This document shows, in pieces, positions 13,318 through 36,658 of a stretch of DNA of 64,000 nt. Both the position numbers and the translations under genes were made by a program. Source of the stretch: a bacterium (lineage in GTDB: Bacteria; B130-G9); contig DATLAJ010000114.1 of NCBI GenBank assembly GCA_035527515.1, forward strand, positions 7,994 to 71,993, written 5' to 3'. Numbering within the stretch: the first letter of the stretch is position 1; the number at the start of each line of letters is the position of its first letter. Under the pieces are notes generated by a model. That model had not been told where the DNA came from, did no database searches, and worked only from the letters and a program-made list of their open reading frames with translations.

Positions 13318-13800
13318 ATGAGAAAGAAGGCCAACAGAAGCGTTCTGACCATGGCGATTACTATGGTCGTGGTTGTCCTGTTCGTCTGGCACTTCAATCG
13401 CAGGTTCGAGCAGATCAAGCAAAGGGCCAGGCCCAGCGTTCAGCCGTCTTCAGCGGCAGAACAGGTCGAGAGCCCGGCGCCGAGCTCCGAGCAGGCCAGT
13501 CTGACCAAGCCTGGTCAGGCAAAGCGCCCCATACTTGGCTGCTTCTGCGCGGAGTGGCGCTACGGCTGCGACGAGATGAGAGAGCTTCTGGACAAGATGA
13601 AGGCTCGGTTCGGCGAGAGGCTTCAGGTTCGCATGATCGACCCAGCTGACGATCCTGATCTGGCCAAACAGTTTAGGATCAACAACTTGCCGACTTTCAT
13701 TGTGTTCGACGCGCGCGGCAAGCTCGTTCTGCGGAGCGAGGGAGCGATGACGGAGGAGGATCTGCTCGCAGCGCTCGGTCGGGCTGGGCTTGGCGATTGA
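13318..13800 (+). CDS. membrane-anchored thioredoxin-like protein (atypical CxxxxxxC site)
   Basis: N-terminal TM helix, then CFCAEWRYGC in the position of the Trx WCGPC motif and the Trx-fold signature NNLPTFIVFDARGKLV. Start 3 nt after the carbamoyltransferase stop. Confidence 0.55.
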   Translation: MRKKANRSVLTMAITMVVVVLFVWHFNRRFEQIKQRARPSVQPSSAAEQVESPAPSSEQASLTKPGQAKRPILGCFCAEWRYGCDEMRELLDKMKARFGERLQVRMIDPADDPDLAKQFRINNLPTFIVFDARGKLVLRSEGAMTEEDLLAALGRAGLGD

Positions 13801-16800
13801 GGGAATGACCTTGAAAAGCTTATTCATATTCGTTGCCATACTGCTGCTTTCAGTGTGCTCAGTGAACGAGCTCCGGGGTGAAGAGCCGTCCGCGCTCGAC
13901 GAGAAATCGTGGACGTTCGTCGTTTACATGAGCGCCGACAACAGCCTCTCCAGCACCGCGCCCGTGGACCTCAATGAGATCGAGGGAGCGATCGAATCGG
14001 TCGATGCGAATGTGGTAATCCTGATCGACCAATTCAGCAACGCGGACACACGCGCCTACCGGGCGCGATACGATCCTGCCGGACCGCAGAACAGCGCTAT
14101 TGTCTCGGACGAAGTCCCGCTGGGCGACATCGAAAGCGGCTGGGACGGCCTGACTGAGCTAGACCTCGCCAACCCAGATACATTGCTTGCTTTCTCCAAG
14201 TGGGCGGTCGCGAACTACCCGGCCGATCATTTCGGACTTGTCCTTTGGGACCATGGGGACGGCTGGAGGAAGAAGCTCGCTCCGAGCAAACCGCGGAAAG
14301 ACATCTGCTACGATGGCTATGCCTCTATGGACATGCTGGAGCTCAAGTCCGCGCTCGCAGCACTGAAGCAGGAGACCGGCGTGACCTTCGACCTTGTCGG
14401 GATGGACGCCTGCCTGATGGGGATGGTCGAGGTCGCATACCAGATCAAGGACCTGTGTAAGGTGGTGGTGGCCTCCGAAGAAACGGTTCCCTGGGACGGC
14501 TGGGACTACGGCTTCCTGAGCGAGATCGAGCCCGGCTCAGACCTCACACCCAAGGAGCTTGCCATGCATATCGTCAACTACTTCTATAACTCGTACACCG
14601 ACGGCAAGTCAGACCCGGACGACGAATCATACGTGGTGCTCTCCGCTATTGACGAGGCGAAGTTCGACGACGGCTTCCTGTCCTCCCTTGGCAGCCTCGC
14701 CCAGCTGCTCATTGGCTCGATGGAGCACAGCAAGAGTAAGGTTTACGATGCCTACCTCTCGAGCTACAGGATGGAAGATTACTGGTATTACGTTGATCTC
14801 AAGGACTTCATGCTTGCACTGAGCGCTCAGAACATCTCCGAGGCAATATCTGCCGCGGCGCAGCAGGTTGCCTCGAGGCACGACGACGTAGTCTATTACC
14901 ACCGCTCTGGGGCGGGCCTTCCTTACTGCTATGGACTATCGATCTACTTCGAGTCGGAAGAATATAGCTACGACGAGCGCTACGACGGTAACCAGGGCTT
15001 CCTGGACTTTACTGCCGACACGCTTTGGGATGAGGTCCTGAGGTCTTATTACAACCCTGGCTCGGTGTCGCCGCAGATAGACTTCGAGCTGCTGCCGGAC
15101 ACGGAGGATTTCGACGAGGACATCACACTCAGCTGTTTCATCCACTCCGAGCTGCCTCTTGTAGAGGGGGAGGTCCTGGTCTATTACAGGACAGGGAGTG
15201 CGGCTCGGTCCGCTTTTGATTGGACGGCCACCGCTCTGGCGCCCGGCGTCCTGCCCGAACAGTACGTGGCGACTCTCCCCGGTCAGCCTGAGAACACACA
15301 GGTCTTTTACTATCTATACGCCGAGAATATCGCCGGAAGCTACTCAACTAGCCCTGCCGACGCTCCCGACCAGGTGCATAGCTTTTGGGTGCGAACCGAT
15401 TCAGTCCCGCCGTCGATCGAGCACACGCCGCTCGTCAGCCAGCCTGCTGCCCGTGGCTCGTTTCAGGTTACCTGCATCGTTCGCGACAGCGTCGGCGTGG
15501 ACGAGCAGAGCGTCAAGCTTTACTACCACTATTCCAACGAGGACGACGCTTTTGTCCATCTCACGAAGCAGGGCGACTCGACTTACTACGCGGAGATTCC
15601 AGGAGCTGGCCTAGTCCCCGGCGACCGCGTGTCGTATCGCCTCGAGGCATCTGACATCGCCAAGACCCCCAACAGGGCGCTCTTGCCGGAGGCTGGCTAC
15701 TTCAGTTTCTCGATCATACCCTCGCTGGGCTCAGTGCTCCTAATAGACGATGGTTCAGGTGGCTCTGCCGACATCTTTCTTGACGTGCTCGAGGCCGCTG
15801 GATACGTGGTCCACACCCACAACCCAGGCGAGAGCTTGCCCGACCTACCGTTTGACGTTGTGATATATTGCCTCGGCGATGCCTCGGAGCCGCTCCCAGC
15901 ATATTACGAGGGCCTCGTTGAGTACGTGCTCGGCGGTGGGCGGCTCCTGATCGAGTCGGGGGACCTTGCATGGAGCGCTTGCCAGCAGTACCCGTCCAAG
16001 CTCTCTGACCTAAGGCGCTATGTCCTGCACATAGACTCCTGGAAGGCAGACTACGGGGACATACTCATACTCAAAAAGCCCGAGGCGCAGCTTGCGACTG
16101 CGCCGAACGTGCTCGAGGCGACGGTCGGATTTCAGGGCGAGTTTCTCGCCACAAGGGACGTATGCGTCCCTGCGGCCGACGGAAACGTGCTCTACGATTG
16201 GTCGCGGTATTCCCAGCCGGGCTTGATATACTTCGACGAGGATGGGGACGACACAAACGGAGGCCAGATAGTCTATATGACGTTCGCAATTCCTTACGTT
16301 TCAGACGAGCAGGGCGGGCGAGCGCAGTTGATAGAGAACTGCGCCTATTACCTTTCTGACTACGTTCGGGACACCACCCCGCCGGTTCTCGCCGATGTAA
16401 ACCCCCGTACGGGTGCAACCGTGCCGCCGGACACGAGCATATCGTTTTCAGTAGTTGATGGCGACACTGGTGTTGACCAGAGCACAGTGGAACTCTTGGT
16501 CAACGGCTCCGCCGTCTCCACCCAGATCACGCGCCTCGAGAGCGAGCATCGTTTGGCCGTGTCCTATGCCCCGCCCGGTGGCTTTGAGCCGGAGACCTTC
16601 TACCAAATCCAGATATCTGCGTGCGATTTCGCCAGCAATTGCCTGACGGACGATACGCACTGGTTTGAGACAAGCACCGCATCCGCCCGTGCGCCAGTGA
16701 TTCTCGCAGGCGGATTCTTGCAGACGCAGGTGCTGTCCGTCGGCGAGACCCTGAAGGTGGTCGCAATGCCGAAGACGTTTGGCGAGACTAACGCTGTCGA

Positions 16801-17014
16801 ACGTGTTGAGCTTCAGTTTGGGGGAATACATCTGGGCGTGTCTCTGAACGATGATGGTCTCTTGGGAGACGGCGTGGCGGGGGACGGCATATACTCGGCC
16901 GAGCTCGAGGTCCCGACAGGGGTTATCGCTGGACAATACGAGCTTCAGATAGTCGTGTGGGACGCTTTGGGTCTATCTAGCGAGCCGTGGCCGGCGCTAC
17001 ATGTTGCGCCGTAG
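13790..17014 (+). CDS. secreted clostripain-like cysteine peptidase (family C11) with large C-terminal Ig-like/beta-sandwich extensions
   Basis: Signal peptide. Catalytic His block FGLVLWDHGDGW and catalytic Cys block DLVGMDACLMGMVEVAYQ, the C11 hallmark. About 650 aa of repeat-like beta-rich sequence follows. Confidence 0.75.
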   Translation: MAIEGMTLKSLFIFVAILLLSVCSVNELRGEEPSALDEKSWTFVVYMSADNSLSSTAPVDLNEIEGAIESVDANVVILIDQFSNADTRAYRARYDPAGPQNSAIVSDEVPLGDIESGWDGLTELDLANPDTLLAFSKWAVANYPADHFGLVLWDHGDGWRKKLAPSKPRKDICYDGYASMDMLELKSALAALKQETGVTFDLVGMDACLMGMVEVAYQIKDLCKVVVASEETVPWDGWDYGFLSEIEPGSDLTPKELAMHIVNYFYNSYTDGKSDPDDESYVVLSAIDEAKFDDGFLSSLGSLAQLLIGSMEHSKSKVYDAYLSSYRMEDYWYYVDLKDFMLALSAQNISEAISAAAQQVASRHDDVVYYHRSGAGLPYCYGLSIYFESEEYSYDERYDGNQGFLDFTADTLWDEVLRSYYNPGSVSPQIDFELLPDTEDFDEDITLSCFIHSELPLVEGEVLVYYRTGSAARSAFDWTATALAPGVLPEQYVATLPGQPENTQVFYYLYAENIAGSYSTSPADAPDQVHSFWVRTDSVPPSIEHTPLVSQPAARGSFQVTCIVRDSVGVDEQSVKLYYHYSNEDDAFVHLTKQGDSTYYAEIPGAGLVPGDRVSYRLEASDIAKTPNRALLPEAGYFSFSIIPSLGSVLLIDDGSGGSADIFLDVLEAAGYVVHTHNPGESLPDLPFDVVIYCLGDASEPLPAYYEGLVEYVLGGGRLLIESGDLAWSACQQYPSKLSDLRRYVLHIDSWKADYGDILILKKPEAQLATAPNVLEATVGFQGEFLATRDVCVPAADGNVLYDWSRYSQPGLIYFDEDGDDTNGGQIVYMTFAIPYVSDEQGGRAQLIENCAYYLSDYVRDTTPPVLADVNPRTGATVPPDTSISFSVVDGDTGVDQSTVELLVNGSAVSTQITRLESEHRLAVSYAPPGGFEPETFYQIQISACDFASNCLTDDTHWFETSTASARAPVILAGGFLQTQVLSVGETLKVVAMPKTFGETNAVERVELQFGGIHLGVSLNDDGLLGDGVAGDGIYSAELEVPTGVIAGQYELQIVVWDALGLSSEPWPALHVAP

Positions 17015-17798: not shown

Positions 17799-18044
17799 AT
17801 GAAGGCGGTCAAGGGCATTTATGAGAATGGGAAAGTCAGGCTATTAGAAAGCATGCCAAGGAAAGAACAAACTGATGTCATGGTCATTTTTTCTGACGAG
17901 ACTGAGGCGACGGCGCAGCGTGGCGAGATAAGAGCCGATGCCTTGCTGAGGGAACTCGACGCAATAGCGGACAGCATCGAGGGGGAGTTCGACTCGGCTC
18001 AGGACGTGCAGAAGATTCGCAGGGAAAGGGCCGATAGTCTGTGA
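17799..18044 (+). CDS. type II antitoxin (AF2212/DUF104-like, VapB-type partner)
   Basis: 81 aa starting MKAVKGIYENGKVRLLE, typical of the small antitoxins paired with PIN toxins. 4-nt ATGA overlap with the downstream PIN gene. Confidence 0.6.
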   Translation: MKAVKGIYENGKVRLLESMPRKEQTDVMVIFSDETEATAQRGEIRADALLRELDAIADSIEGEFDSAQDVQKIRRERADSL

Positions 18045-18475
18045 AAGAGCTCTGCATTGACGCCAGCGTTGTAGTCAAGTTGGTTCTCAAGGGGGAGATG
18101 CATCGTGCTACAGCACGCCGGCTGTTGAGGGACTGCCTCGTCAACAATATCTCGCTTGTCGCGCCTCATTTGTATGAGTGCGAGGTTGATACAGTTATTC
18201 GTAGGCGAGCATACGAGGGGAGGCTTAGTCTTGCCGATGCAAAGAAGGCGCTCGCTGGATTGGACAGGGTGCCTGTTCAGGTTATGGCGCATCCTGACCT
18301 TCGTGGATGTGCCCGGGAAATCGCGCTGCGCTTCAATCTGCGCTCTGTTTACGACGCAACGTATGCAGCACTTGCTAAACTACAGGGGTGCCAGTTCTGG
18401 ACGGCGGACAAGGCTTTCTACGACGCGGTCAAATCAGGATTGCCGTTCGTGAGATACTTGCCTGATTACCAATGA
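18041..18475 (+). CDS. vapC: PIN-domain ribonuclease toxin VapC
   Basis: LCIDASVVVKLVL start. Acidic residues map to PIN positions (D7, E48-like, D-rich segment, FWTADKAF). Length 144 aa. Confidence 0.75.
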   Translation: MKELCIDASVVVKLVLKGEMHRATARRLLRDCLVNNISLVAPHLYECEVDTVIRRRAYEGRLSLADAKKALAGLDRVPVQVMAHPDLRGCAREIALRFNLRSVYDATYAALAKLQGCQFWTADKAFYDAVKSGLPFVRYLPDYQ

Positions 18476-18514: not shown

Positions 18515-18820
18515 ATGTGCTTCGGGGTAAAGGTGGGATTAGGACAACTAGAATCAGGATACCGTGGTTGCATCTTGGGTGTGGCGATCGGGGTCGCTTT
18601 TGGCGCACCAGTTGAGTTTTTGCGCCTGCACGAGATAAGACAGCAGTTTGGCGAGCGCGGCGTTCAGAATTTCAACAGTTATCGAGGTTTTGCGGCTGGC
18701 TCTTACACCGACTATGCACAGATGACGCTCGCTACTGCGCGGGTGCAGCATGGAATCTTAGATTGTAAGTCCAACCCGTCTCGGCTGGCGCTTAGCTACG
18801 CTTGCGGACGTAGAAGATGA
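18515..18820 (+). pseudogene. N-terminal fragment of ADP-ribosylglycohydrolase (DraG/ARH family), truncated
   Basis: GCILGVAIGVAFGAPVEF...GSYTDYAQMTLA matches the ARH N-terminal signature G.LLG.AVGDALGAPVEF...YTDDTQM, with substitutions at the two metal-binding Asp sites. Only ~100 of ~300 aa are present, and the 3' end runs antisense into the methyltransferase gene. Confidence 0.5.
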
Positions 18821-19751
18821 TGCCGCTGCCCTCCTTGAGCTTCGGCGCAAGCCAGCGTAGTAACTTGCGGACGCCCAGCCGGTAGTAGATAACCTTGAGG
18901 AGACGGCAGATGGGGCACTTGCTGTCGGTTGATGGCGGGAAGACTTGCTCCCTGATGCGCCCGTAGTTGCCGCTCTCGCGCTTCAGCACCCAGAACCCAT
19001 GCTTCTCGAGCATGAGCCGAAGCGTGCTGGGCGTGAAGAAGCACAGGTGTGCGGGCACAGCGTCGGGAGCGATTGCCCCAGGCCGCTTGCCGCTCGCTAT
19101 GGCGTTCAGAACCTTCTCCCAGTGGAAGAGTTCGTAGGGAACCTGAACGACGAGAACGCCGTCATCCTTCAGTATGCGGCGGACGACGTTGAAGGCTGAC
19201 TTGTGGTCATCGAGATGCTCGACGACGTCCAGCATCAGTATCACGTCGAAGAACATCTCTGGGAACTGCGCACGCGCGAGCGGGACGTTCTGGACCTCTA
19301 GCTCCATCACTTGCTGCGCATAGCTCGCCGAGGTCTGCGAGAGCTCCACGCCGTAGGTCTCCCATCCGCGCTTTCGAAAGTAGTCGAGAAGGAGCCCATA
19401 GGCGCAGCCGACCTCAAGTATCCGGCCTCCCTTCTTGAACTGGCTGATAGCGCGGAGCCGCTCGTCGAATATCTCCATGAACGTCTCATGGTACTCGTGA
19501 AACGTCTTGAGGTAATCGGGATAGCCAACGGTTGCGTCCTTGTAGTATCTCTCGTCGTAGATTGCGGCAATGCCTTCCTTGGTGGGTCTCGGGCTTAGGT
19601 AAGTCAGGCCACAGACCCGACATCGTACGACGCCGTAAACCTCCTTCTGAACCGAGAGCAGCCGGGCGTCATCGGTGCCGCATAGCGGGCAGCGGACGTG
19701 TTCAACTTCCCGCATCAAGCTCTCGCGGTCCGCGCTCTTATCCTGTCCCAC
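18792..19751 (-). CDS. class I SAM-dependent methyltransferase with N-terminal zinc-ribbon
   Basis: CPLCGTDD...CRVCGL zinc ribbon. SAM-binding motif I ILEVGCAYGLLLD, post I VELS and motif II ILMLDVVEHL. Confidence 0.75.
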   Translation of the reverse strand: MGQDKSADRESLMREVEHVRCPLCGTDDARLLSVQKEVYGVVRCRVCGLTYLSPRPTKEGIAAIYDERYYKDATVGYPDYLKTFHEYHETFMEIFDERLRAISQFKKGGRILEVGCAYGLLLDYFRKRGWETYGVELSQTSASYAQQVMELEVQNVPLARAQFPEMFFDVILMLDVVEHLDDHKSAFNVVRRILKDDGVLVVQVPYELFHWEKVLNAIASGKRPGAIAPDAVPAHLCFFTPSTLRLMLEKHGFWVLKRESGNYGRIREQVFPPSTDSKCPICRLLKVIYYRLGVRKLLRWLAPKLKEGSGIIFYVRKRS

Positions 19752-21157
19752 GCTCTCACCACGAAAAATGAAGCGAATGCAACCATGTAGGGTTCAATGG
19801 GCAGCCTGTACCGAGGCTCAGCGGTTGTCAACACATGCACCGAGACGAAGAGTAACACGACGGCGATGAGCACCCACTTCTGCCTGGAGAGTCTTGATGA
19901 TCTCCTGAAAGACAGCACGAAACCGACTACGAAAAGCGGCAGAATCAGGCCGTAGGAAAGAAGCCTCGCAACAGTTACTAGCGCCGAGGTGCGCGTGCGG
20001 CCAAGCACCCTGAAAAACTCGATGAAGCGCACCAAACAGAGTCGTGCGTAAAGCCCAGGGTTAGCGAGTATGAACTGCTTGGCGAGGTTGACGTATTTGG
20101 CATTGCGCTGGGCCTCATCCTCGTCCGGCGCAAACCGTGGGAACCGCACCGTCTCGGGACGGTTCACTGAAAACGGTGGCTTGCCGATGAGCCACTCGTA
20201 GGCGCGAGCCTCCTTCTCCTCGTTGTAGAATCGCTCATTGAAGCGATAGTTGTTCCGTTCCCAGAGATTCCAGCTCTTCGTTGGCATGATCACAACGCGT
20301 CCGAATATATCATAGTTCCTGACGACCCAGGGCACGAGGCAGAGGCCGATTGCCACCAGCAAAACCAGCGTCTCCTTGAGCCTGAAATCGCCTCGCCGCG
20401 GCCAGAGAATCGCCACGATGCCGACCGGAAGCATCCCCGCCATAGTCGATTTGGTCAGAAATCCGAGCGTCCAGACCGCGCCTGCAAGCGCGGCAAGCCA
20501 CAACTGGGGCCGTTCCCTGAAGCGAATGATCAAGTTGATGAATGCAGCGAAGAGGAACAGAAACAGCGTCTCGGTGAGCACCACGCCAGAAAAATAGATA
20601 AGCGCCGGATAGACCGCGAGAACCAACAGCGCAAGGAGAGCGGCTCTCTTTCCAAAGATGCCTCTTGCCACGTCGAACACGAGCCAGCAGGTTGCCACGC
20701 CCAGAAGCGCCATGATGAGACGATAGACGAGGAGGTTGCCGGGGCCAAGGAGGTAGTAGGAGAGGGCGAGAATAAGCGGGTTCAGTGGGGGGACGGTAAC
20801 CTGCGGTATCCCCGGACGGACTAGGCCCCAAAGCCCGCCGAGCTCGCGATACAGCTCGAACTTCTTCTTGACCCACTCCGGCTGACCGTCCGGCGGATAT
20901 AGGAGGTCCGCGGATATCGAGAGGCCCCGTCCAGCGAGGAAGCTCCGCGCAAGCGAATCGTGCAGAAGCTGGTCCGGTCCGGGGATGAATTCGTTCGATG
21001 GCAGAGCTATGACGAACCCCACCCTCAGGACCAAGGCGAGAAGCAGCAGCAAGAATTGTCCACGAAGAACACGAAGGGCCACGAAGCGACGCCAACAGCG
21101 CACAGACGAGCTCTTATCAATCAACTTTGAATCTGGAACCTTGAACCTGGAGCTCAT
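19715..21157 (-). CDS. GT-C fold membrane glycosyltransferase (GT39/ArnT/PMT-like)
   Basis: Start refined to ATG 21157 (MSSRFKVPD...), overlapping the upstream radical SAM stop by 4 nt (ATGA). It has more than 10 predicted TM helices and an ArnT/PMT-like N-terminal region with a periplasmic loop (ArnT/PMT-like DE-like acidic loop). Confidence 0.65.
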   Translation of the reverse strand: MSSRFKVPDSKLIDKSSSVRCWRRFVALRVLRGQFLLLLLALVLRVGFVIALPSNEFIPGPDQLLHDSLARSFLAGRGLSISADLLYPPDGQPEWVKKKFELYRELGGLWGLVRPGIPQVTVPPLNPLILALSYYLLGPGNLLVYRLIMALLGVATCWLVFDVARGIFGKRAALLALLVLAVYPALIYFSGVVLTETLFLFLFAAFINLIIRFRERPQLWLAALAGAVWTLGFLTKSTMAGMLPVGIVAILWPRRGDFRLKETLVLLVAIGLCLVPWVVRNYDIFGRVVIMPTKSWNLWERNNYRFNERFYNEEKEARAYEWLIGKPPFSVNRPETVRFPRFAPDEDEAQRNAKYVNLAKQFILANPGLYARLCLVRFIEFFRVLGRTRTSALVTVARLLSYGLILPLFVVGFVLSFRRSSRLSRQKWVLIAVVLLFVSVHVLTTAEPRYRLPIEPYMVAFASFFVVRAWDRIRARTARA

Positions 21158-22197
21158 CTTATGAATGACAGTATCCGTTCTAGCAGCACTCGGCTGTCTC
21201 GCACAAGATATGACGTATCCCGCCAGCACCCATAAATGCAGCCCCGGCACGGCCTGACAAGCTCGGCAACCTTTCGGCTGTATTCCTTGGAACCGAAGAA
21301 CGTCAAAAAATCGTCGTCGAGCACGTTACAGAATGGCTCAATCTCATCGCACGGCGAGAGCGACCCGTCCGGAAAGACCACGAAGTAGAGCCATCCAGCG
21401 TCGCACGCGAAGCTATAGTCCCCCGTCTTTAACGCCTCTCTTGAAGCCTCGAGGAACTTCATTGAGGCGCCCACGCGCTTGCCTCGCCGCTTCATCTCGA
21501 TCACCGCGTCGTACGCCTCATCGATGAGTGGGGCGTCATCCCGCCCGAAGGTCATCTCCTCGGCATAGCTGCGGATGAGGTTCTCCTGCTTGTCTGACGG
21601 GAGCAGATGCACTGGCACAAGGCTCGAATACGCGCCAAGCCCATCGACAAACTCGACGATCTGAGGCAGCTCTTTGATATTCTGCCTCGAGACGACAGTG
21701 TTGACGACGTTGACCGAGTTGGGCAGCCGCTTGACGACGTGCCTGATGGTGCTCACGGCGGAATCCCACAGGCCGTTGGAGCCACATATTTCGTCCTGCT
21801 TTGCAGCGTCGAGCGTGTCGAGTGAGACGGTAAAATGCTCTGCGCCAGCATCTATCACGGCATCGATCCGCGCAGGCGTTACGGTCTTGGCTCCCGTCGT
21901 CTGGACGCGAACCGCGATGCCCGCCTCAGTGAACGCCCTCGTAATCTGGGGCAACTCCTCGCGCACGAAGGGCTCGCCACCGGTGAAGACGACGTTCGGC
22001 ACACCGATTCTGCGCAAGCGGCTTGCGATCTTGGCGACGCTCTCGACCGGCGGCTCCTCGGCCACGTTGCCGTATTTCCATATTGAGCACATCTTGCACT
22101 TGAAGAGGCACCGGCGTGTTATGTAGTAGTGCACGTAGAACGGCTTGTGCAGCAGTTTTGACTTGAGAACGTCAGAGAATATCTTGAGTTTTCGCAT
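21154..22197 (-). CDS. radical SAM / SPASM-domain protein
   Basis: CxxxCxxC site RRCLFKCKMCSIW and the glycine-rich FTGGEPF. The C-terminal Cys-rich SPASM-like region is CDAGWLYFVVFPDGSLSPCDEI...CRGCIYGCW. Confidence 0.8.
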   Translation of the reverse strand: MRKLKIFSDVLKSKLLHKPFYVHYYITRRCLFKCKMCSIWKYGNVAEEPPVESVAKIASRLRRIGVPNVVFTGGEPFVREELPQITRAFTEAGIAVRVQTTGAKTVTPARIDAVIDAGAEHFTVSLDTLDAAKQDEICGSNGLWDSAVSTIRHVVKRLPNSVNVVNTVVSRQNIKELPQIVEFVDGLGAYSSLVPVHLLPSDKQENLIRSYAEEMTFGRDDAPLIDEAYDAVIEMKRRGKRVGASMKFLEASREALKTGDYSFACDAGWLYFVVFPDGSLSPCDEIEPFCNVLDDDFLTFFGSKEYSRKVAELVRPCRGCIYGCWRDTSYLVRDSRVLLERILSFIR

Positions 22198-22288
22198 GTC
22201 CCGGCTCTATGGCTTTCGACTAAAATCAGTTAGCAGCCTTAATCTATAGCCCCGGCTGGGCATGGTCAATGGGGATGAGAGAGAGAGG

Positions 22289-22397
22289 CCACATCATCGC
22301 CCGGCGCAAGCGGTGGCGATGCAGCCGGCTACCATTTTGATTAACCCCCATCTTCAGATGGGGGATGTGCGGCACACAAAGACCTCGCCTCTATCCC
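22289..22397. repeat. repeat family X copy X2: two-hairpin element
   Basis: Hairpin 1 is CATCGCCCGGC-gcaa-GCGGtGGCGATG (GNRA loop). Hairpin 2 is CCCCCATC-ttca-GATGGGGG, followed by gtgcggcacac. About 90% identical to 22740-22828. Confidence 0.55.
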
Positions 22398-22627
22398 ATT
22401 CAGATGAGGATTCCGGGAAGGAAGGAGAGGGAGGGGGGCGCCTCGGCCTCCTCAGATCACCCGACTGAAGTCGGGTGCTAATACAATGAGAGCCATCTGT
22501 ATCACCGCGTTAAAACGCAGTGATTAGGCCAGCGGGAGGTGTGGGGCGGGCTTTCTAGCCTGCCTTTCCTTCGCGGAGGTCACGCTGGCTAGCTCATCCA
22601 CCCGGAGTAAGCGGCATGTGAGGGCTA

Positions 22628-22828
22628 CCTCATCGCCCGGCGCAACCGACACTTGAGGCCACATCGCCCGGCGCAACCGACACGCGCGAGCACATCATCG
22701 CCCGGCGCAACCGACACTTGAGGCCACATCGCCCGGCTTCAGCCGAGGCGATGCAGACGGTTACCATTTTCATTAACCCCCATCTTCAGATGGGGGATGT
22801 GCGGCACACCGAGACCTCCCCTCTATCC
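22628..22828. repeat. repeat family X copy X3 with 3.5 tandem ~32-bp sub-repeats (atcgcccggcgcaaccgacac + 10-13 nt) followed by the two-hairpin element
   Basis: The unit catcgcccggcgcaaccgacacttgaggcca recurs at 22630, 22661, 22694 and 22727. Then catcgcccggcttcagccgaggcgatg and cccccatcttcagatggggg are read directly. Confidence 0.55.
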
Positions 22829-22845
22829 TCTTCAATGGACCTCGA

Positions 22846-23199
22846 TCATACAGGCACCCCCTCGCGCCGCAGGTTCAAGAGGATTGGGCTATTCAGCGAT
22901 GAATAATTGTCCTCAGAAACAGGATAGACCGACATCAAGACGTTGTGCTCAAGATTCAGATCGGCAACAATATCTATCATCCTGTCGATCTCATCGAGCG
23001 GGCTAACCTCGCCTCTTGAAACAACTGCCAAGTCGATGTCGGAGACCCCGGTCGCATCGCGCCCACGCGGCTGCTGCCACATAAGAATGGACGGGCGGAG
23101 ACAGGCCCCGCAAGCCACCCAGTGACGCGGCCACGAATGAACATCAACGGACGCGCTGCAACCCCCGCAAGGGGGTACGACGGGTAGCCGTGCGTGCAA
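22846..23199 (-). pseudogene. nucleotidyltransferase (MNT/KNTase-type, toxin-antitoxin-like) remnant lacking the normal N-terminal helix
   Basis: RGRDATGVSDIDLAVV...LDEIDRMIDIVADL...ILLNLRREGVPV matches the minimal NTase signature (GS.ARG....SDIDL.V). The preceding in-frame 37 residues (MHARLPVVPPCGGCSAS...) are unlike any NTase N-terminus. No HEPN partner follows; repeat X3 lies there instead. Confidence 0.45.
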
Positions 23200-23447
23200 C
23201 GCAACGGAAACGGAGAGGAGGGATTGGGTCCTCGGTCTCCTCGCACCGTCAGGCTGCGCCTGCGGCTACCAGTGGTATGCTCTTGCGGGCAAATGTTATT
23301 CGCCGTTATTTAGGGGCTGCCTGAACACGCCCAGCGGAGATGTCATTCTCGCGTGCGATCGCGACTTGCGTTTCTGCCTCATCGGTGGCAACAATGCCAG
23401 AGTATAGATTGATTTGGAGATGAGCACTTCTGCGGGAGGGTGTTTCG

Positions 23448-24476
23448 GTGAAGAAGTCATTTTTTATGCTGCTGATCTTGCTGCTGTGTATTGCGTCGGT
23501 CGTGGTGGGGATAATGCTCTTGCGAAAGGAGAGCGCTCGTCCCCGGATGAGCGCGCTAGACCGTCTGGCAAGCACATTTGAGAGGAGATTTGCCAAGTTT
23601 GAGCCCAGAAGAGGGCCGAGCGTGGGCCTTGTCCGCATCTTTGGCGCGATAACGTTCACGGAGTCTCAGGGCATGTTCGAGGCCTACCCACGAGGCGCGC
23701 TGCGGACTATCCGTGCGATTAGACAGCTCAGGGAAAACCCCAGCGTGAAGGCGATCGTAATCGAGATCAATAGCCCCGGCGGGACGGTGGGAAGCGTTCA
23801 AGAGATATGCCACGAGATAAAGATGGCTCAGAAGGCGGGCAAGAAGGTGATCGCTTCCGTCGCCGACATGGCTTTCTCGGGCGGCTACTACATCGCGTCG
23901 GCCTGCGACAAGATCGTGGCCAACCCTGGCTCGTTGACGGGCAGCATCGGCGTGATCATCGTCGGGGCGGACTTGCAGAAGCTGTTCGACATCATCGGTA
24001 TCAAGTTCAACGTGCTCAAGAGCGGAGAGCATAAGGACATACTTGCCTACTGGCGAGACATGACTGACGAGGAGCGTAATCTGCTCCAGACGCTTGTCAT
24101 GGACTGCTACCAGCAGTTCGTAACCGCTGTCTCGGAGGGCCGAAACATCCCGATAGAGAAGCTGCTGCCGCTTGCTGACGGGCGCATCTTCTCGGGCACG
24201 CAGGCGCTTGACAATCAGCTTATCGACAGCCTCGGCACGCTCGATGACGCGATCAACCTCGCCGCCGAGCTCGCTGAGATCAAGGGCAAGCCAAGTATCA
24301 TTAGGCCCACGATCGAGCCATTTGAGCGGTTCTTCAAGTTTATCGACGCCAAGTTCGGAAAGACCCCATCGCTCAAGGACATGGTGATGGGCGAGTGCGA
24401 CTCTCCGATACAGTATCGGGCCAACATCGGCTCTGCCCAGGCGGCATTTGCCTATCCGACTAATAGCCAACAGTAG
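23448..24476 (+). CDS. sppA: signal peptide peptidase SppA (S49, 36K type)
   Basis: N-terminal TM helix, AIVIEINSPGGTVGS, the catalytic Ser block VADMAFSGGYYIA, and the Lys region KSGEHKD. Confidence 0.85.
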   Translation: MKKSFFMLLILLLCIASVVVGIMLLRKESARPRMSALDRLASTFERRFAKFEPRRGPSVGLVRIFGAITFTESQGMFEAYPRGALRTIRAIRQLRENPSVKAIVIEINSPGGTVGSVQEICHEIKMAQKAGKKVIASVADMAFSGGYYIASACDKIVANPGSLTGSIGVIIVGADLQKLFDIIGIKFNVLKSGEHKDILAYWRDMTDEERNLLQTLVMDCYQQFVTAVSEGRNIPIEKLLPLADGRIFSGTQALDNQLIDSLGTLDDAINLAAELAEIKGKPSIIRPTIEPFERFFKFIDAKFGKTPSLKDMVMGECDSPIQYRANIGSAQAAFAYPTNSQQ

Positions 24477-27860: not shown

Positions 27861-27975
27861 ACGGGACGGCCGGGCTGAACGTCTCAGGTGGCGATCATCA
27901 GGCGCTATAGCTACGAGACCGTTTCAGCCGCGGCGTTTGACAGCGATTGGCCTTCTGATGCACAATTGCCCAGCA

Positions 27976-30658: not shown

Positions 30659-30670
30659 CAGGAGTCGCAA

Positions 30671-31969: not shown

Positions 31970-32020
31970 CGACCACGCCGGTATCCTCGCGACCCCGAAT
32001 GGGTCGAACAGCCCGTCCAC

Positions 32021-32054
32021 AGGGCTATGTTTAGCCCTTTCAGGGCTATTTTCC
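32021..32054 (+). terminator. rho-independent terminator after permease gene
   Basis: AGGGCTAtgttTAGCCCTttcAGGGCTATTTTCC: alternative 7-bp stems followed by a T-run. Confidence 0.45.
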
Positions 32055-32105
32055 TTTCTTCCTCTGACCCTGATCCGTAGGTTTCACCTACGGCTACTCA
32101 CGTTC

Positions 32106-32173
32106 ATCCCCTTGCGGGGATGCGGGAAGAACGCCGTCAGTTGAGCAGGCCCGGGCACGATTACGAAAACTCA
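32106..32173. repeat. conserved 68-bp upstream element, copy Y1
   Basis: atccccttgcggggatgcgggaagaacgccgtcagttgagcaggcccgggcacgattacgaaaact is about 90% identical to 33844-33910, with the terminal hairpin flipped (ccccTTGCgggg versus ccccGCAAggg). Confidence 0.6.
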
Positions 32174-32187
32174 TCCCAGATGCCAGG

Positions 32188-32216
32188 TTGACACATTCTT
32201 GCCGACTCGCTATAAA
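32188..32216 (+). promoter_or_regulatory. sigma70-like promoter TTGACA-17-TATAAA for B12-binding radical SAM gene
   Basis: Perfect -35 ttgaca (32188-32193), a 17-nt spacer, tataaa (32211-32216), 15 nt downstream of element Y1. Confidence 0.45.
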
Positions 32217-32264
32217 CTGCTCTCGCAAGCACACATCAGAGCACTTAAAGATGAGACTAGACAG

Positions 32265-33704
32265 GTGAAGAATCGCGATATTAGGATACTTTTTGTGAAC
32301 CCCGGCCGGGGTATCTACGACATGCCGCCGTTGGGTGTCTGCTACTTGAGTTCCTATCTTAAAAAGTATGGGACCAACACATACAAGACTGTTCTCGCCG
32401 ATGAATACGCTGGACACAATCCGATCAAGGTGGCGAGACAGTTTGAGCCTGATATTATCGGCTTTTCGAGCGCGACAGCCCAGTATCACAGAGCCACCCG
32501 GCTGGCCAGAAAAATGCGAAGGTTCTCAAATGCACCTCTCGTCATCGGCGGGCTGCATCCGACTGCTCTGCCAGAGCAGGTCATCAAGGAGGGCTTCTTC
32601 GATATCGCTGTCGTCTCCGAGGCGGAGCGCTCCTTCACACACCTGGTCGATGCTCTTGCCGCCTCGGGCTTTGCGCTCGACAGCGGCGTGCTGCGGCAGA
32701 TTCCGGGCATAGCGTTCAGGTCTGACGATGAGATTGTGCTCACTGAGCCGCCGAAGTTCATCGATGACCTCGATACGATCCCCTTCCCAGACAGGTCTCT
32801 GCTCGACCTTACGCACTACCTCCATCGCAACGCCGCTATCCGGAGCATGATCACCAGAAACACGACGCTAATGACGTCGCGAGGCTGTCCGTTTAGGTGC
32901 ATATACTGCATCTCAGTGCATCGGCGCCAGCTTCGCGAACACTCGCCCGAATACGTCATAGAGGAGATGCAGAGCTTGGTTCGGGACTACAACCTTGAGG
33001 GGCTTTGTATAATCGACGACACCTTCATCTTTGACGGGAAGCGGGCCTCGCGCATCGCCGAGCTAATGCTCCAGACAGGAATCGCACGACGGCTCAAGTG
33101 GCCGTGTTACGGACGGGCCAACATCGTCAGCAGGTGCGAGGATTCCTTCATCAACCTCCTCAAGAAGGCGGGCATGGCCCAGATGGAGTTCGGCTTCGAG
33201 AGCGCCTCAAAACGAGTGCTTCAGTTCCTCAAAGGCAAGGGCGTAACCCCTGAAGACAACGAGGCCACGCTCGACCGGCTGGAACGCCTCAATGTCCGGG
33301 CGCTCGCGACATTTCTGACCGGAGTGCCAACCGAGACTGCCGAAGAGAGCAGAATGACCGTGGAGTTCATTCGCCGAAACTTCGAGCGGCTGGCATACTT
33401 TGAGATACTTTATTTGGTCCCGTACCCCGGCACGAGGGTCTGGGAGATGCACCACATGGATGACATCATCTCGCCCAACCTGTGGCAAAACTACAAGATC
33501 GGCCTGAACAAGAGGTTCCCCGTCGATTCAGAGTTCACAAGGAACATCGATTACGAGACTGCCACCAAGGCTGTCAATGAGGTCATGTCGATGATGGTCA
33601 AAAAACAGAAGCTCACGTATAACCTTCGCTTCCTGCGAGACCGGTTGAGGATTGCCCCACTCGACACTGTCAAGAAAGTCGCCGCACATTTCCTTGGCCG
33701 GTAG
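32265..33704 (+). CDS. B12-binding-domain radical SAM protein (class B)
   Basis: GTG 32265 start (VKNRDIRILFVNP...) is preferred over the track's TTG 32199, which would place the promoter inside the gene. It has an N-terminal cobalamin-binding-like domain and a radical SAM CxxxCxxC site SRGCPFRCIYC. Confidence 0.8.
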   Translation: MKNRDIRILFVNPGRGIYDMPPLGVCYLSSYLKKYGTNTYKTVLADEYAGHNPIKVARQFEPDIIGFSSATAQYHRATRLARKMRRFSNAPLVIGGLHPTALPEQVIKEGFFDIAVVSEAERSFTHLVDALAASGFALDSGVLRQIPGIAFRSDDEIVLTEPPKFIDDLDTIPFPDRSLLDLTHYLHRNAAIRSMITRNTTLMTSRGCPFRCIYCISVHRRQLREHSPEYVIEEMQSLVRDYNLEGLCIIDDTFIFDGKRASRIAELMLQTGIARRLKWPCYGRANIVSRCEDSFINLLKKAGMAQMEFGFESASKRVLQFLKGKGVTPEDNEATLDRLERLNVRALATFLTGVPTETAEESRMTVEFIRRNFERLAYFEILYLVPYPGTRVWEMHHMDDIISPNLWQNYKIGLNKRFPVDSEFTRNIDYETATKAVNEVMSMMVKKQKLTYNLRFLRDRLRIAPLDTVKKVAAHFLGR

Positions 33705-33843
33705 CAGCACCGTGCCGAGCTCGACTACCCCAGACAATTCACACAAAGAAGATCGAGAAAACAAGCATGATGAGTTTCCCCATTCTGTCTTGGAATGGTT
33801 CATGGCATCGCTTTCGTTTCACGGGGCTTGATAGGCGCTGCGA

Positions 33844-34674: not shown

Positions 34675-34705
34675 AGGGCGATCGGTCGTGCTAGAGCGAG
34701 TGCCT

Positions 34706-35782: not shown

Positions 35783-36658
35783 ATGCCTGATAGGGACCTT
35801 CCCGCCCTGTCCATCGTCATCCCGGTTCAGGACGAGGCAGATTCTATTGGCTCGGTCATAAGCTCCGTCAAGGCCGCGCTCGATTGCCACGAGGGAGGCT
35901 ACGAGATAGTAGCGGTCGATGACGGCTCTGCTGACAACAGTGCCCAGTTGGCCGAGGATGCCGGGGCGAGGGTCATCTCGCATGGCTTGAGGCGTGGCTA
36001 TGGTGCGGCGCTAAAGACTGGGATCAAGGCGGCCAGGGGACGGACAATCGCGATAATCGATGGGGACGGCACGTATCCGGCGGAGGTGATTCCTGCGCTC
36101 GCACGGGGGCTTGAATCTGCCGACATGGTCGTCGGGGCGAGAGTGCGGGCCGGGGCCTGCGTGCCGATCACGAGGAGGCCGGCCAAATGGCTTCTGACGA
36201 AGCTTGCGGGCTTTCTCTCAGGGGTGAAGATTCCTGACCTCAACTCCGGGCTGCGAGCCTTCAGAAGGGATGTTGCCCTGCCCTATCTGCGGGTCCTGCC
36301 GGACAGGTTCTCATTCACCTCGACCATAACGCTTCTGATGCTCGGGGACGGGAAGTCGGTGGAGTACATGCCCATCGACTATCACAGGCGGGCCGGCAAG
36401 TCCAAGATAGTCCCCAGCGACGCCTTCTCATTCTTGATACTCATCATCAGAACCGTGATGTTCTTCAATCCGCTCAAGTTCTTCCTACCTATTGGGCTCG
36501 TTATATTTCTTGTGGGCGCGGCGAAGTTGTCCACGGACTATCTGATCTATGATAGACTATCATCAACCTCCGTGCTGCTGATACTATCCGCCATCCAGAT
36601 ATGGGGTCTGGGCTTCTTGGCGGAGCTGGCCCTGTTCCTCGAAAGGCGAAGGAAGTAA
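35783..36658 (+). CDS. GT2 polyprenyl-phosphate glycosyltransferase (DPM1/ArnC-like) with C-terminal TM helices
   Basis: LSIVIPVQDEADSIGSVI...YEIVAVDDGSADNS...DGDGTYP, the typical GT2 DxD region. Two C-terminal TM helices as in ArnC/GtrB. Confidence 0.75.
   Translation: MPDRDLPALSIVIPVQDEADSIGSVISSVKAALDCHEGGYEIVAVDDGSADNSAQLAEDAGARVISHGLRRGYGAALKTGIKAARGRTIAIIDGDGTYPAEVIPALARGLESADMVVGARVRAGACVPITRRPAKWLLTKLAGFLSGVKIPDLNSGLRAFRRDVALPYLRVLPDRFSFTSTITLLMLGDGKSVEYMPIDYHRRAGKSKIVPSDAFSFLILIIRTVMFFNPLKFFLPIGLVIFLVGAAKLSTDYLIYDRLSSTSVLLILSAIQIWGLGFLAELALFLERRRK

Follow-up and report, generated by a model that had tools for sequence, protein, structure and literature searches.

A conserved operon of a radical SAM enzyme, a GT-C glycosyltransferase and a Zn-ribbon methyltransferase as a candidate sugar-tailoring module for envelope glycosylation

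The three genes located between positions 18792 and 22197 of the window (the whole stretch of 64,000 nucleotides that was analysed) form a conserved operon that, on balance, probably encodes a module for envelope glycosylation, which would depend on a lipid carrier (polyprenyl-phosphate sugar) and include two tailoring enzymes of the cytoplasm. The best reading is that of an Arn/Gtr-like module in which the sugar would undergo radical and methyl tailoring; we infer its substrate, the type of reaction, the acceptor and the order of the steps. This reading is based on the conservation of the trio and its promoter, the identity of the glycosyltransferase, the neighbours of the radical SAM (rSAM) family, the GT2 fusions within that family, the BlsE-like fold and the relatives of the methyltransferase. 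Counted against it are the absence of donor genes from the operon, the restriction of the orthologous trio to one lineage, a sister clade in which no GT-C adjoins the rSAM gene, the strong fold matches to RiPP maturases, and the lack of a Pfam assignment for most of the polytopic membrane proteins near family members. Three ORFs, all on the minus strand and confirmed as real genes, fill precisely the region 18792 to 22197, and the three enzyme classes that an earlier note had claimed for them were recovered with Pfam:

18792..19715, minus strand: class I SAM-dependent methyltransferase, 307 aa, HUT03976.1 (Methyltransf_23, 91.1 bits)
19715..21157, minus strand: GT-C membrane glycosyltransferase, PMT_2 / GT39-GT83-like (PMT_2, 64.5 bits)
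21154..22197, minus strand: radical SAM enzyme, 347 aa, HUT03978.1 (Radical_SAM, 80.6 bits)
22241..22269, minus strand: sigma-70-like promoter, TTGACC-17 nt-TAGATT, found by consensus scan about 45 nt 5' of the rSAM start codon

The genes are tightly packed downstream of this single promoter. TTGAC and TATAGATT are invariant across the six aligned loci of the clade, and the remaining upstream region is unalignable. It had been proposed that both gene junctions are ATGA overlaps. At the rSAM/GT-C junction (...AAG ATG AGC...), the ATG at 21157 and the rSAM stop codon form a 4-nt ATGA overlap; however, NCBI (HUT03977.1) places the GT-C start at a GTG at 21103, 18 codons past the ATG chosen by other gene callers, and residues 1–18 are disordered in the AlphaFold model, so that this overlap is plausible but not certain. 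The GT-C/methyltransferase junction (GCT TGA TGC) is instead a TGATG overlap of 1 nt, and the ATG start of the methyltransferase is backed by N-termini conserved across all orthologues. Short overlaps of this type are common in bacterial operons; they may be taken as support, though unremarkable, for co-transcription. Two other loci (L004 and L062) are equally tight, with 1-nt and 4-nt overlaps, and the intergenic gaps of L001 are of approx. 40 nt.

The trio in its exact form, in which the GT-C and the methyltransferase are both orthologues, was found only in the window's own lineage, which is uncultivated (seven Coatesbacteria-like loci), with identities of 73–94% for the rSAM enzyme, 56–86% for the GT-C and 67–75% for the methyltransferase; L001 keeps the trio although both of its flanks differ. 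The conservation of the gene neighbourhood holds within this lineage, but beyond it the orthologous GT-C and methyltransferase do not accompany the rSAM enzyme. In the nearest sister clade (approx. 50% identity) the rSAM gene is flanked by those for a MurC-like ligase on one side and a PilT-like ATPase on the other, and no GT-C adjoins it. This arrangement, the lack of any GT2 donor synthase, flippase or NDP-sugar gene inside the operon, and the occurrence of methyltransferase relatives (42–50% identity) without an rSAM enzyme, would fit a GT-C that transfers an ordinary sugar to an envelope acceptor, while the rSAM enzyme and the methyltransferase act on the acceptor or on another molecule, with a regulatory or physiological link rather than a single pathway. 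We regard this as rather unlikely, given that the coupling and the single conserved promoter persist over the seven loci, one of them with different flanks; that distant clades assemble the rSAM, methyltransferase and glycosyltransferase classes independently, with non-orthologous methyltransferases and glycosyltransferases; and that GT2-rSAM fusions are known in the family. Moreover, the rSAM enzyme and the methyltransferase are soluble cytoplasmic proteins, whereas the active site of GT-C enzymes faces outward, which makes a shared periplasmic acceptor unlikely.

The GT-C has 480 residues when read from the ATG, or 462 from the GTG of NCBI, and about 11–12 TM helices; its invariant residues are D62 (first external loop), E196, P276-W277..R280-N281 and R449. 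It misses every curated model. Nevertheless, the significant fold matches of its AlphaFold model (pLDDT 84) are GT-C enzymes only, i.e., ArnT (5f15/5ezm), STT3/AglB, ALG9, Pmt4 and AftB, with undecaprenyl phosphate-bound ArnT at the top and Emb also among them. Together with the PMT_2 assignment, this supports the view that it is a glycosyltransferase of the lipid-carrier type. The view that the trio is not a standard LPS/EPS cassette was also sustained, since it matches neither a curated family nor a standard LPS/EPS model. No rSAM plus GT-C system was found described in the literature searched.

The rSAM enzyme has its CX3CX2C motif at C30/C34/C37, in a core that starts at approx. residue 20; its C-terminal domain is twitch/SPASM-like and contains five invariant cysteines (C265, C283, C317, C320 and C324). 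Its previous description as a SPASM enzyme was correct regarding the radical SAM class; however, the Pfam SPASM score (20.3 bits) is below the cut-off of 21.5, and the SPASM motif has seven cysteines and the twitch four, so that, judged from the sequence, "SPASM/twitch-like" is the accurate wording. No NCBIfam family was reached at its cut-off (all scores of at most 86 bits versus cut-offs of at least 231), and there was no match to the anSME, PqqE or mycofactocin models; hence the enzyme does not group with anaerobic sulfatase-maturating or cofactor enzymes, a placement that the earlier note had named, together with a trio not kept as a unit, as refuting its proposal. The best solved fold match of the AlphaFold model (pLDDT 92) is BlsE (7vob; TM-scores 0.72/0.76, E=3e-14, full length, 344 columns), and Viperin, DesII and AbmM also rank high, all of them sugar or nucleotide enzymes; anSME appears only at rank 37. 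The RiPP maturases SuiB, PqqE, SkfB and CteB are likewise strong matches, so that structure alone does not separate a sugar from a peptide substrate.

These maturases, being among the top fold matches, would speak for the glycosylated RiPP suggested previously, or for a cofactor pathway modelled on mycofactocin, in which the rSAM enzyme would crosslink or modify a ribosomal peptide that is then glycosylated and methylated. The mycofactocin pathway has the same three enzyme classes, i.e., MftC (rSAM), MftF (glycosyltransferase) and MftM (methyltransferase), and weak NCBIfam matches to MftC (47.5 bits) and MftM (20.7 bits) were obtained, far under the respective cut-offs of 265 and 200. Such a pathway is very improbable here. 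A leader ORF would not fit into the approx. 45 nt that separate the conserved promoter from the rSAM start; no conserved small ORF was found up- or downstream of the operon in six loci, and thus no precursor gene lies directly 5'; and the RRE/PqqD domain is absent from the rSAM enzyme and every neighbour. Neither a protease nor an exporter is present, the glycosyltransferase, as a GT-C, faces the periplasm and takes its sugar from lipid-linked donors whereas MftF is a cytoplasmic GT2, and the neighbours throughout the rSAM family are glycan genes. The formation of C-C or thioether bonds is left without support, and of the substrates formerly considered (peptide, protein or lipid) the peptide is disfavoured; the evidence points to a sugar destined for an envelope glycoconjugate.

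The rSAM family is large and unnamed, with approx. 1,465 clusters at 50% identity in bacteria and archaea. ArnC/PgfS-type polyprenyl-phosphate sugar synthases and GT-C-type membrane proteins recur beside its members, as do class I methyltransferases, NDP-sugar enzymes and B12-binding rSAM proteins (B12-rSAMs). Among 55 loci from many phyla, 33 contain B12-rSAMs, about 18 have small GT2s, 12 encode a PRK07208/UGM-like flavoprotein, and several include SDR NDP-sugar enzymes. At 35 of 62 loci there are large polytopic membrane proteins, often immediately adjoining; most of the 38 that were scanned have no Pfam assignment, and 11 are recognisable as PMT_2, YfhO, GT87, PTPS_related or DUF6798. A distant clade (29–33% identity) shows the order SDR, ArnC/PgfS-type GT2, class I methyltransferase, rSAM, unknown, GT-C, and its GT2 aligns over the full length with the PgfS and ArnC models; an archaeal locus has the order PMT_2, AglJ-like GT2, rSAM. 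An N-terminal GT2 domain is fused to 10 of the 27 multidomain members.

The methyltransferase has an N-terminal four-cysteine Zn-ribbon (CPLC-x19-CRVC), kept in all clade orthologues, and a basic C-terminal tail. The genes of its relatives (42–50% identity) overlap that of a sugar-1-phosphate nucleotidyltransferase in the same operon and are followed by that of a GmhA-like SIS_2 isomerase, with PMT_2 nearby. The methyltransferase itself also matches CMAS, UbiG and CFA synthase weakly, which would agree with a modification of membrane lipids, where the target of the rSAM enzyme would be an isoprenoid or acyl chain (like that of Tes/GDGT-MAS or HpnH), the methyltransferase would modify the lipid in the manner of CFA synthase or UbiG, and the head-group sugar would come from the GT-C. 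In the same direction, GDGT-MAS is the best PDB sequence match of the rSAM family profile (E=1.6e-22), and next to family members there are B12-rSAMs similar to HpnJ, HpnR and ladderane enzymes, phytoene-desaturase-type flavoproteins and, at a single locus, a type III PKS with ECH. This alternative is nonetheless unlikely, since the match to GDGT-MAS is confined to the generic rSAM core (positions 20–207) and its fold match is poor (TM-scores 0.52/0.37); the operon and its conserved flanks have no isoprenoid or fatty-acid genes; the fusions and adjacencies of the family involve GT2, ArnC-like and SDR sugar enzymes; and NDP-sugar genes adjoin the methyltransferase relatives.

According to the sugar-tailoring reading, the sugar would be synthesised elsewhere, in the form of an NDP-sugar or with undecaprenyl phosphate already attached through an ArnC/GtrB-type GT2. 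The rSAM enzyme would modify it at the cytoplasmic side, where the 5'-deoxyadenosyl radical would take a hydrogen from a sugar carbon. C265/C283/C317/C320 may ligate a single auxiliary Fe-S cluster, C324 could be a further ligand or an H-donor, and the outcome could be oxidation, epimerisation, deoxygenation or decarboxylation, as with BtrN, BlsE and DesII. The Zn-ribbon methyltransferase would then methylate the sugar and, after flipping, the GT-C would take it off the lipid carrier and attach it to an acceptor in the periplasm or further out; candidates for the acceptor are a protein, lipid A/LPS or another glycan. Other genes of the window that bear on this scheme are:

32199..33704, plus strand: B12-binding radical SAM protein (Pfam B12-binding plus Radical_SAM)
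35783..36658, plus strand: polyprenyl-phosphate hexose synthase-type GT2, AglJ/DPM/ArnC-like (Pfam and NCBIfam matches)
36669-38558: AsnB, downstream of this GT2
38667-41132: second PMT_2-GDSL fusion, downstream of AsnB

The GT2 is the nearest ArnC/AglJ-like one, 14 kb from the trio, on the opposite strand and beside another GT-C; it could supply the donor, but is unlinked to the trio, and its more probable partner is the GT-C next to it. The B12-rSAM protein is similar to the one adjoining the rSAM gene in L028 (phmmer E=1.7e-82), and its subfamily flanks the rSAM family in 33 other loci. In the window it is unlinked, 10 kb away, and a functional tie to the trio in this genome is putative.

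Among known systems, mycofactocin clusters the same three enzyme classes; nevertheless, the window lacks MftA, B, D and E, and the mycofactocin glycosyltransferase is a GT2 instead of a GT-C. BlsE, the cytosylglucuronate decarboxylase of blasticidin S (PDB 7vob; PMC3715490), is small like the window rSAM (approx. 330–350 aa) and acts on a sugar nucleoside. The two share 22% identity, the NCBIfam BlsE model gives 51.5 bits versus a cut-off of 400, and BlsE belongs to a nucleoside antibiotic cluster whereas the window rSAM belongs to an envelope GT-C operon. The twitch/SPASM dehydrogenases BtrN and anSME have in common with the window enzyme a cysteine-rich C-terminal auxiliary-cluster domain; anSME is absent among the 25 NCBIfam matches listed for it, and its vicinity contains no sulfatase gene. 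The substrate that BtrN oxidises is carbohydrate-like, and the C-x17-C ... C-x2-C of the window rSAM may resemble the four-cysteine twitch arrangement of BtrN. Redox epimerisation of a sugar on polyprenyl-phosphate followed by GT-C transfer has a precedent in DprE1/DprE2 with the Emb/Aft GT-C enzymes; AftB and Emb, of this decaprenyl-phosphate arabinose route, are fold matches of the window GT-C, but the tailoring by DprE1/DprE2 is flavin/NADH-dependent rather than radical, and these proteins have no sequence kinship to the window rSAM or methyltransferase.

The three-component systems of extracytoplasmic glycosylation (GtrA/GtrB/GtrC, CsbB-YfhO, PgfS-PgfM and the pentofuranose systems of PMC11127046) follow the logic of a GT2 polyprenyl-P-sugar synthase, a flippase and a GT-C, and PgfS/ArnC-type GT2, GtrA, YfhO and PMT_2 genes adjoin members of the rSAM family. 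These systems are not known to include rSAM/SAM-methyltransferase tailoring, and in the window a GT2 and a flippase are missing from the operon. In the Arn pathway (ArnA/B/C/D/T; lipid A 4-amino-arabinose) there is neither an rSAM enzyme nor a methyltransferase, the window operon lacks homologues of ArnA/B/C/D, and its GT-C is only 16–17% identical to ArnT. Nevertheless, the Arn-like layout is found in distant clades of the rSAM family, as cassettes that run from an SDR and an ArnC-like GT2 to a GT-C. In the Arn pathway the sugar is tailored in the cytoplasm before and after carrier loading, ArnA/B acting on the nucleotide sugar and ArnD on the lipid-linked sugar, and the pathway ends, as is proposed for the operon, in an ArnT-type GT-C that takes the sugar from undecaprenyl phosphate.

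The deposited records of the three genes carry only generic product names, and the closest named relatives of their proteins are found in 'Candidatus Coatesbacteria'. The genes form one operon on the minus strand, and the product of each scores above the cut-off of its Pfam family:

22197-21154, minus strand: ORF1, protein of the radical SAM superfamily, 347 aa (HUT03978.1; Radical_SAM, PF04055, 80.6 bits versus a cut-off of 29.5)
21157-19715, minus strand: ORF2, polytopic membrane protein with the GT-C fold, PMT_2 type (GT39/GT83-like), 480 aa (HUT03977.1; PF13231, 64.5 bits versus 26.1)
19715-18792, minus strand: ORF3, class I methyltransferase with an N-terminal zinc ribbon (CPLC...CRVC), 307 aa (HUT03976.1; Methyltransf_23, PF13489, 91.1 bits versus 27)

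An ATGA overlap had been described in the earlier note for both junctions. This is what is found between the stop codon of the radical SAM gene and the ATG of ORF2, whereas the stop codon of ORF2 and the ATG of ORF3 form TGATG, with an overlap of 1 base. The first overlap is probable rather than certain, given that the NCBI record of ORF2 starts at a GTG 18 codons further in, versus the ATG used by three other sources, and that residues 1-18 of ORF2 are disordered in the predicted model. Alignment of the 380 nt that precede the radical SAM gene in the window and in five related loci showed that conservation is limited to TTGAC(C/G)-spacer-TATAGATT, invariant in 6/6 loci and ending approx. 45 nt before the start codon; a consensus promoter scan gave the same site (TTGACC-17-TAGATT, 22269-22241). 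Therefore, the transcription unit begins at the radical SAM gene, and there is no space for a leader or precursor ORF.

This bears on the earlier proposal that the product could be a glycosylated RiPP, a pathway recognized by a precursor peptide gene near the maturase and by an RRE (PqqD-like) domain, carried either by the maturase itself or by a protein that partners it. All ORFs of at least 20 aa in 22190-23450, as well as the upstream alignment of six loci, were searched for a small substrate gene immediately 5' of the operon, and no conserved small ORF was found; only the promoter, directly upstream of the radical SAM gene, is conserved. The RRE model PF05402 has no match in the radical SAM protein, whose core begins around residue 20, and no PqqD-like neighbor was found in the clade loci. 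Mycofactocin, whose pathway also includes a glycosyltransferase, was rejected as well, since MftC scored 47.5 bits versus 265 and MftM 20.7 versus 200; genes similar to mftA, mftB, mftD or mftE were not found near the trio, and MftF is of the GT2 type, in contrast with the GT-C enzyme of the window. A RiPP or mycofactocin-like pathway thus fails on a precursor near the operon, the RRE, the model scores and the type of glycosyltransferase, and we consider it extremely improbable.

The spacer that separates the promoter from the divergently oriented SppA gene measures 1.25 kb in the window and contains repeats and a degenerate ORF, versus approx. 335 bp in two loci of the same lineage (L004 and L062), which lack the repeat insertion. 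A 108-nt element is present in two direct copies (88% identical; 22295-22402 and 22727-22834), each with a perfect hairpin CCCCCATCTTCAGATGGGGG; its 35-nt core is absent from the rest of the 64 kb. Between these repeats, and partly overlapping the start of the second, a CATCGCCCGGCGCAACCGACAC-bearing unit occurs in three tandem copies every 31-34 nt (22627-22737). This unit has no Rfam match, and Rfam and tRNA scans of the whole window found no features. The ORF at 22846-23199 on the minus strand is probably a decayed gene: its C-terminal part, read by eye only, resembles a minimal nucleotidyltransferase (MNT-type antitoxin; ...GVSDIDLAVV...), its N-terminus is aberrant, and it has no Pfam match at an E value of 0.01 or better. 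Downstream of the trio, a truncated gene converges on the 3' end of the methyltransferase gene, next to a VapBC-like pair:

17799-18475, plus strand: small VapB-like ORF that overlaps the gene of a VapC-like (PIN-domain) toxin
18515-18820, plus strand: ADP-ribosylglycohydrolase fragment of 101 aa, covering no more than positions 1-61 of the model

The three orthologues are present in the same order in four loci of the lineage of the window (L001, L004, L009 and L062), and two others (L007 and L008) agree as far as their contigs extend. Across this clade, identity to the window is 73-94% for the radical SAM protein, 56-86% for the GT-C enzyme and 67-75% for the methyltransferase. The flanks of L001 are entirely different, which argues that the trio travels as a unit. 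Outside the lineage, the identity of the GT-C enzyme falls abruptly to 30% or less, amid generic ArnT/PMT_2-like proteins. In the sister clade (approx. 50% identity; L002, 7001-9168, and the contig of protein P0011) the radical SAM gene lies between genes for a MurC-like Mur ligase and a PilT-like ATPase, the start of the latter overlapping its stop codon, and has no adjacent GT-C gene. From these results it follows that the exact trio is lineage-specific: the three genes keep together within the lineage of the window but not beyond it. L002 also has a GT9 heptosyltransferase gene 2 kb downstream of the radical SAM gene.

The radical SAM protein carries the motif C30-x3-C34-x2-C37 (CX3CX2C), invariant in 21 sequences, and its AlphaFold model (pLDDT 92) shows an alternating beta/alpha core. 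The earlier note had called it a SPASM enzyme, a class defined by seven cysteines, in the arrangement CX9-15GX4C - gap - CX2CX5CX3C - gap - C, together with a PF13186 match above threshold. This assignment did not hold, since PF13186 gave 20.3 bits versus a cut-off of 21.5, and five C-terminal cysteines are invariant versus the seven required. Beyond the three cluster cysteines, the invariant residues are C265, G278, C283, C317, C320 and C324, of which the first three form C265-x12-G278-x4-C283, the second cysteine block is CX2CX3C (C317/C320/C324), and the trailing cysteine is absent. Twitch domains of the BtrN/MoaA type have an abridged C-terminal beta-hairpin followed by a helix, and a single auxiliary [4Fe-4S] cluster. 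In the predicted model, the C-terminal domain shows a hairpin (E271-274/E279-281) and then helices; this, and the C...G-x4-C plus C-x2-C pattern, which resembles the single-cluster arrangement of BtrN, would be compatible with a twitch domain. The best solved fold match over the full length, the blasticidin S cytosylglucuronate decarboxylase BlsE (TM-scores 0.72/0.76, 22% identity), falls in the twitch-type size class. It is followed by the RiPP maturases SuiB, PqqE, SkfB and CteB, and then by viperin, DesII, GDGT-MAS, anSME, MoaA and AbmM. Because these matches are mixed, the predicted structure only slightly favors a small-molecule or sugar enzyme.

No NCBIfam model approached its cut-off with the radical SAM protein. 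The best NCBIfam match was TIGR04053 (86 bits versus 395), with PqqE, NirJ, MoaA, AhbD and MftC lower; these cofactor enzymes were rejected, since the matches cover only the core and reach at most 86 bits versus cut-offs of at least 231. The anaerobic sulfatase-maturating enzymes (anSME) are absent from the 25 NCBIfam matches listed, their structures appear in the fold search from rank 37 downwards, and no sulfatase gene, the partner expected of such an enzyme and marked by a C/S-x-P-x-R motif, was found in the neighborhoods of seven clade loci. Grouping with anSME or well-known cofactor pathways, which would have counted against the earlier reading, was not seen among these matches. The Tes/GDGT-MAS lipid synthase gave the best PDB sequence match, but over the core only and with a poor fold match, and was discarded as a specific identity. 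Amphipathic-helix analysis of the termini of the radical SAM protein and the methyltransferase gave weak signals only. A lipid-directed pathway, which would accommodate the sequence match to a lipid synthase, is in our opinion distinctly unlikely. For distant loci an analogy with the hopanoid proteins HpnH/I/J/K is suggestive, drawn from a locus (L063) where a radical SAM gene, a GT2 gene, a B12-like radical SAM gene and ydjC occur; it was not retained, as an HpnH match and squalene and hopene genes are all absent.

A simple hydropathy count gives ORF2 at least eight strong hydrophobic segments, and its model (pLDDT 84) has approx. 11-12 long helices. All the significant PDB fold matches of this model are GT-C enzymes, with ArnT bound to undecaprenyl phosphate in first place, followed by STT3/AglB, ALG9, Pmt4, AftB and Emb. 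Residue D62 lies in the first external loop, where the catalytic acid is usually placed, and is shared by all 19 sequences aligned, with identities as low as 23%. ORF2 does not appear to be ArnT proper: the ArnT model is not among its NCBIfam matches, the best of which is Agl23 (35.5 bits versus 126), no arn genes were found in the operon, and a PDB sequence search gave no match at an E value below 0.9. From its family, ORF2 would be expected to use a polyprenyl-phosphate-sugar as donor.

The methyltransferase shows the invariant residues L100, G103 and G107 in the motif LEVGCAYG, and also D163-V164..E166-H167. A TcaB9/TylC3-type NDP-sugar C-methyltransferase was rejected, since PF08421 and PF08484 were both unmatched at an E value of 0.01 or better and no TcaB9-like chain was among the PDB sequence matches; the likeness, which we take to be limited to the general layout of zinc ribbon and methyltransferase, is a lead only. 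Approximately 45 cluster relatives, for example in 'Candidatus Aegiribacteria', are 42-50% identical. In two loci of these relatives, the gene overlaps one for a sugar-1-phosphate nucleotidyltransferase, followed by a GmhA-like SIS_2 isomerase gene, and a PMT_2 and methyltransferase pair lies 2-4 kb away. The nucleotidyltransferase and GmhA-like neighbors tie this methyltransferase to nucleotide-sugar metabolism, possibly of the heptose type.

Enzymes of the GT-C fold work at the outer face of the membrane, with donors that are linked to polyprenyl phosphate. Neither the radical SAM protein nor the methyltransferase has a transmembrane segment, and both need SAM and, for the radical reaction, reductant from the cytoplasm; the simplest scheme is therefore one in which a sugar is tailored in the cytoplasm. 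In this scheme, the two enzymes would modify a nucleotide sugar, or else a sugar that has been loaded onto the lipid carrier, the latter a mode of tailoring for which ArnD and DprE1/E2 are precedents. The radical SAM enzyme would abstract a hydrogen atom, leading to oxidation, epimerization, deoxygenation or decarboxylation, and the tailored sugar would be flipped and then transferred by the GT-C enzyme to an acceptor in the envelope. We lean, if only modestly, towards this reading of the trio, in which the reaction, the sugar, the order of the steps and the acceptor are what we infer; what the data show are the identities of the genes, the operon and its conservation, and the linkage of the family to glycosylation genes, fusions included. 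That the radical SAM enzyme and the methyltransferase act on something other than the transferred sugar seems unlikely.

The radical SAM protein belongs to a large family. A word-indexed search returned only approx. 26 full-length relatives, and a pattern scan in which each species was represented by one genome gave 55 loci. With an exhaustive profile search, the number of representatives (50% identity clusters) reached 1,465 at an E value of 1e-30 or better. The 55 loci come from Thermodesulfobacteriota and other delta-type bacteria, the PVC group, Omnitrophota, Nitrospina, Latescibacterota and Chloroflexota, and from archaea (Nanoarchaeota, Woesearchaeota and Methanosarcinales). ORFs within 6 kb of the radical SAM gene were called in all loci and clustered, and representatives were annotated; GT-C-like neighbors were sought by transmembrane-segment count and Pfam scan, local phmmer being too insensitive. 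Throughout the family the gene is linked to glycosylation genes. B12-binding radical SAM proteins lie beside it in 33 loci (73 proteins), small GT2 glycosyltransferases in approx. 18, a PRK07208-type flavoprotein, related to UDP-galactopyranose mutase and amine oxidases, in 12, and class I methyltransferases in at least 12; SDR NDP-sugar epimerase/dehydratases are also recurrent, and GtrA was found in one locus (L006). Large polytopic membrane proteins are present in 35/62 loci, often abutting the radical SAM gene. Recognizable GT-C-type families account for 11 of the 38 scanned (six PMT_2, two YfhO and one each of GT87, PTPS_related and DUF6798), and for most of the others no Pfam match was found.

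A neighbor-joining tree and the gene maps distinguished three types of context. The first comprises the clade of the window with its sister and archaeal relatives; in one of the compared loci (L003) the order is PMT_2, AglJ-like GT2, radical SAM, two B12-binding radical SAM proteins and, further on, a UGM-like flavoprotein and an SDR. The second is a B12-rich clade with the typical order B12, GT2, B12, FAD, B12, radical SAM and a GT-C-like protein of approx. 1,050 aa. In the third, with 29-33% identity, the order is SDR, GT2, methyltransferase, radical SAM, unknown and GT-C. The GT2 proteins of this third type match the PgfS and ArnC models over their whole length, which indicates that they are polyprenyl-phosphate sugar synthases; its methyltransferases are only 16-24% identical to that of the window and lack the zinc ribbon, which means that the same enzyme classes were assembled independently. 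The only cultured organism found to carry a family member, Pelagicoccus mobilis KCTC 13126, belongs here (NZ_JAENIL010000027.1; L048, 7947-11270), with a cassette of radical SAM, class I methyltransferase and PgfS/ArnC-type GT2 genes, and with an SDR and a membrane protein of nine transmembrane segments downstream.

The linkage extends to gene fusions. Among the 150 best family representatives, 27 are multidomain fusions, all with at least one extra radical SAM domain (26 with a SPASM match), 10 with an N-terminal GT2 and one with a B12 domain. P0191, P0193, P0204, P0237 and others are giant proteins of 700-1,900 aa in which an N-terminal GT2 and/or B12 domain is combined with two to four radical SAM/SPASM modules, the final module being of the family of the window.

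Radical SAM enzymes inside a glycan cluster that contains GT-C genes were also seen in L063 (6339-15317), an O-antigen-like cluster holding a relative approx. 29% identical to the GT-C enzyme of the window, together with a Wzm/Wzt ABC transporter, two B12-binding radical SAM proteins, a YdjC deacetylase, another PMT_2 protein, GT9, GT2 and a Bac_transf priming transferase. Further genes of these kinds, unlinked to the trio, are present in the window itself; the following list also includes a gene with a clostripain-type peptidase domain:

6623-7975, minus strand: PRK07208 flavoprotein
13790-17014, plus strand: secreted-looking protein of 1,074 aa with an N-terminal Peptidase_C11 (clostripain) domain, followed by a long C-terminal extension without Pfam matches
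27457-29061, plus strand: membrane GT2
32199-33704, plus strand: B12-binding radical SAM protein (E=1.7e-82 to the partner type in locus L028)
35783-36658, plus strand: AglJ/DPM/ArnC-like GT2, with AsnB next and then a PMT_2-GDSL fusion that ends at 41132

The last three belong to a second glycan-related set on the plus strand (27457-41132), which also includes a 5'-nucleotidase, a xanthine/uracil permease and an unknown protein of 372 aa; within it, the AglJ/DPM-like GT2, the asparagine synthase and the PMT_2-GDSL lipase fusion (821 aa) seem to make up a lipid-carrier glycosylation cassette of their own.

For the window, the gain is modest: three genes with generic names are now better annotated, and the RiPP hypothesis is removed. 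Its operon is a lineage-specific member, and the wider radical SAM family is the more valuable lead. This unnamed family, spread over bacteria of many phyla and over DPANN and Methanosarcinales archaea and often accompanied by B12-binding radical SAM proteins, may carry out radical chemistry on sugars on, or bound for, a polyprenyl-phosphate carrier before GT-C transfer, an undescribed class of pathway that we put forward tentatively, as a possibility somewhat short of probable. The products of such a pathway could be envelope sugars of uncommon structure, such as C-methylated, branched, deoxygenated, epimerized or ring-contracted ones. With approx. 1,465 clusters, no curated name or characterized member, and glycosyltransferases fused or adjacent in many uncultivated phyla, the family is a defined target in the search for radical reactions that modify sugars in new ways and for envelope glycans of uncommon structure. 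Pelagicoccus mobilis, as a cultured carrier, makes the hypothesis testable and is a possible experimental model.

Literature searches on radical SAM enzymes with GT-C or undecaprenyl glycosylation, and on Coatesbacteria, found no combined system; the closest report describes three-component pentofuranose systems that are free of radical SAM enzymes (PMC11127046). We rate the trio as a probable lipid-carrier/GT-C glycosylation system with radical tailoring, and not as categorically new. If this reading is right, the Arn, Gtr, Pgf and Emb/Aft systems, which combine GT-C enzymes and undecaprenyl phosphate, gain a relative in which the sugar is tailored by a radical SAM enzyme.
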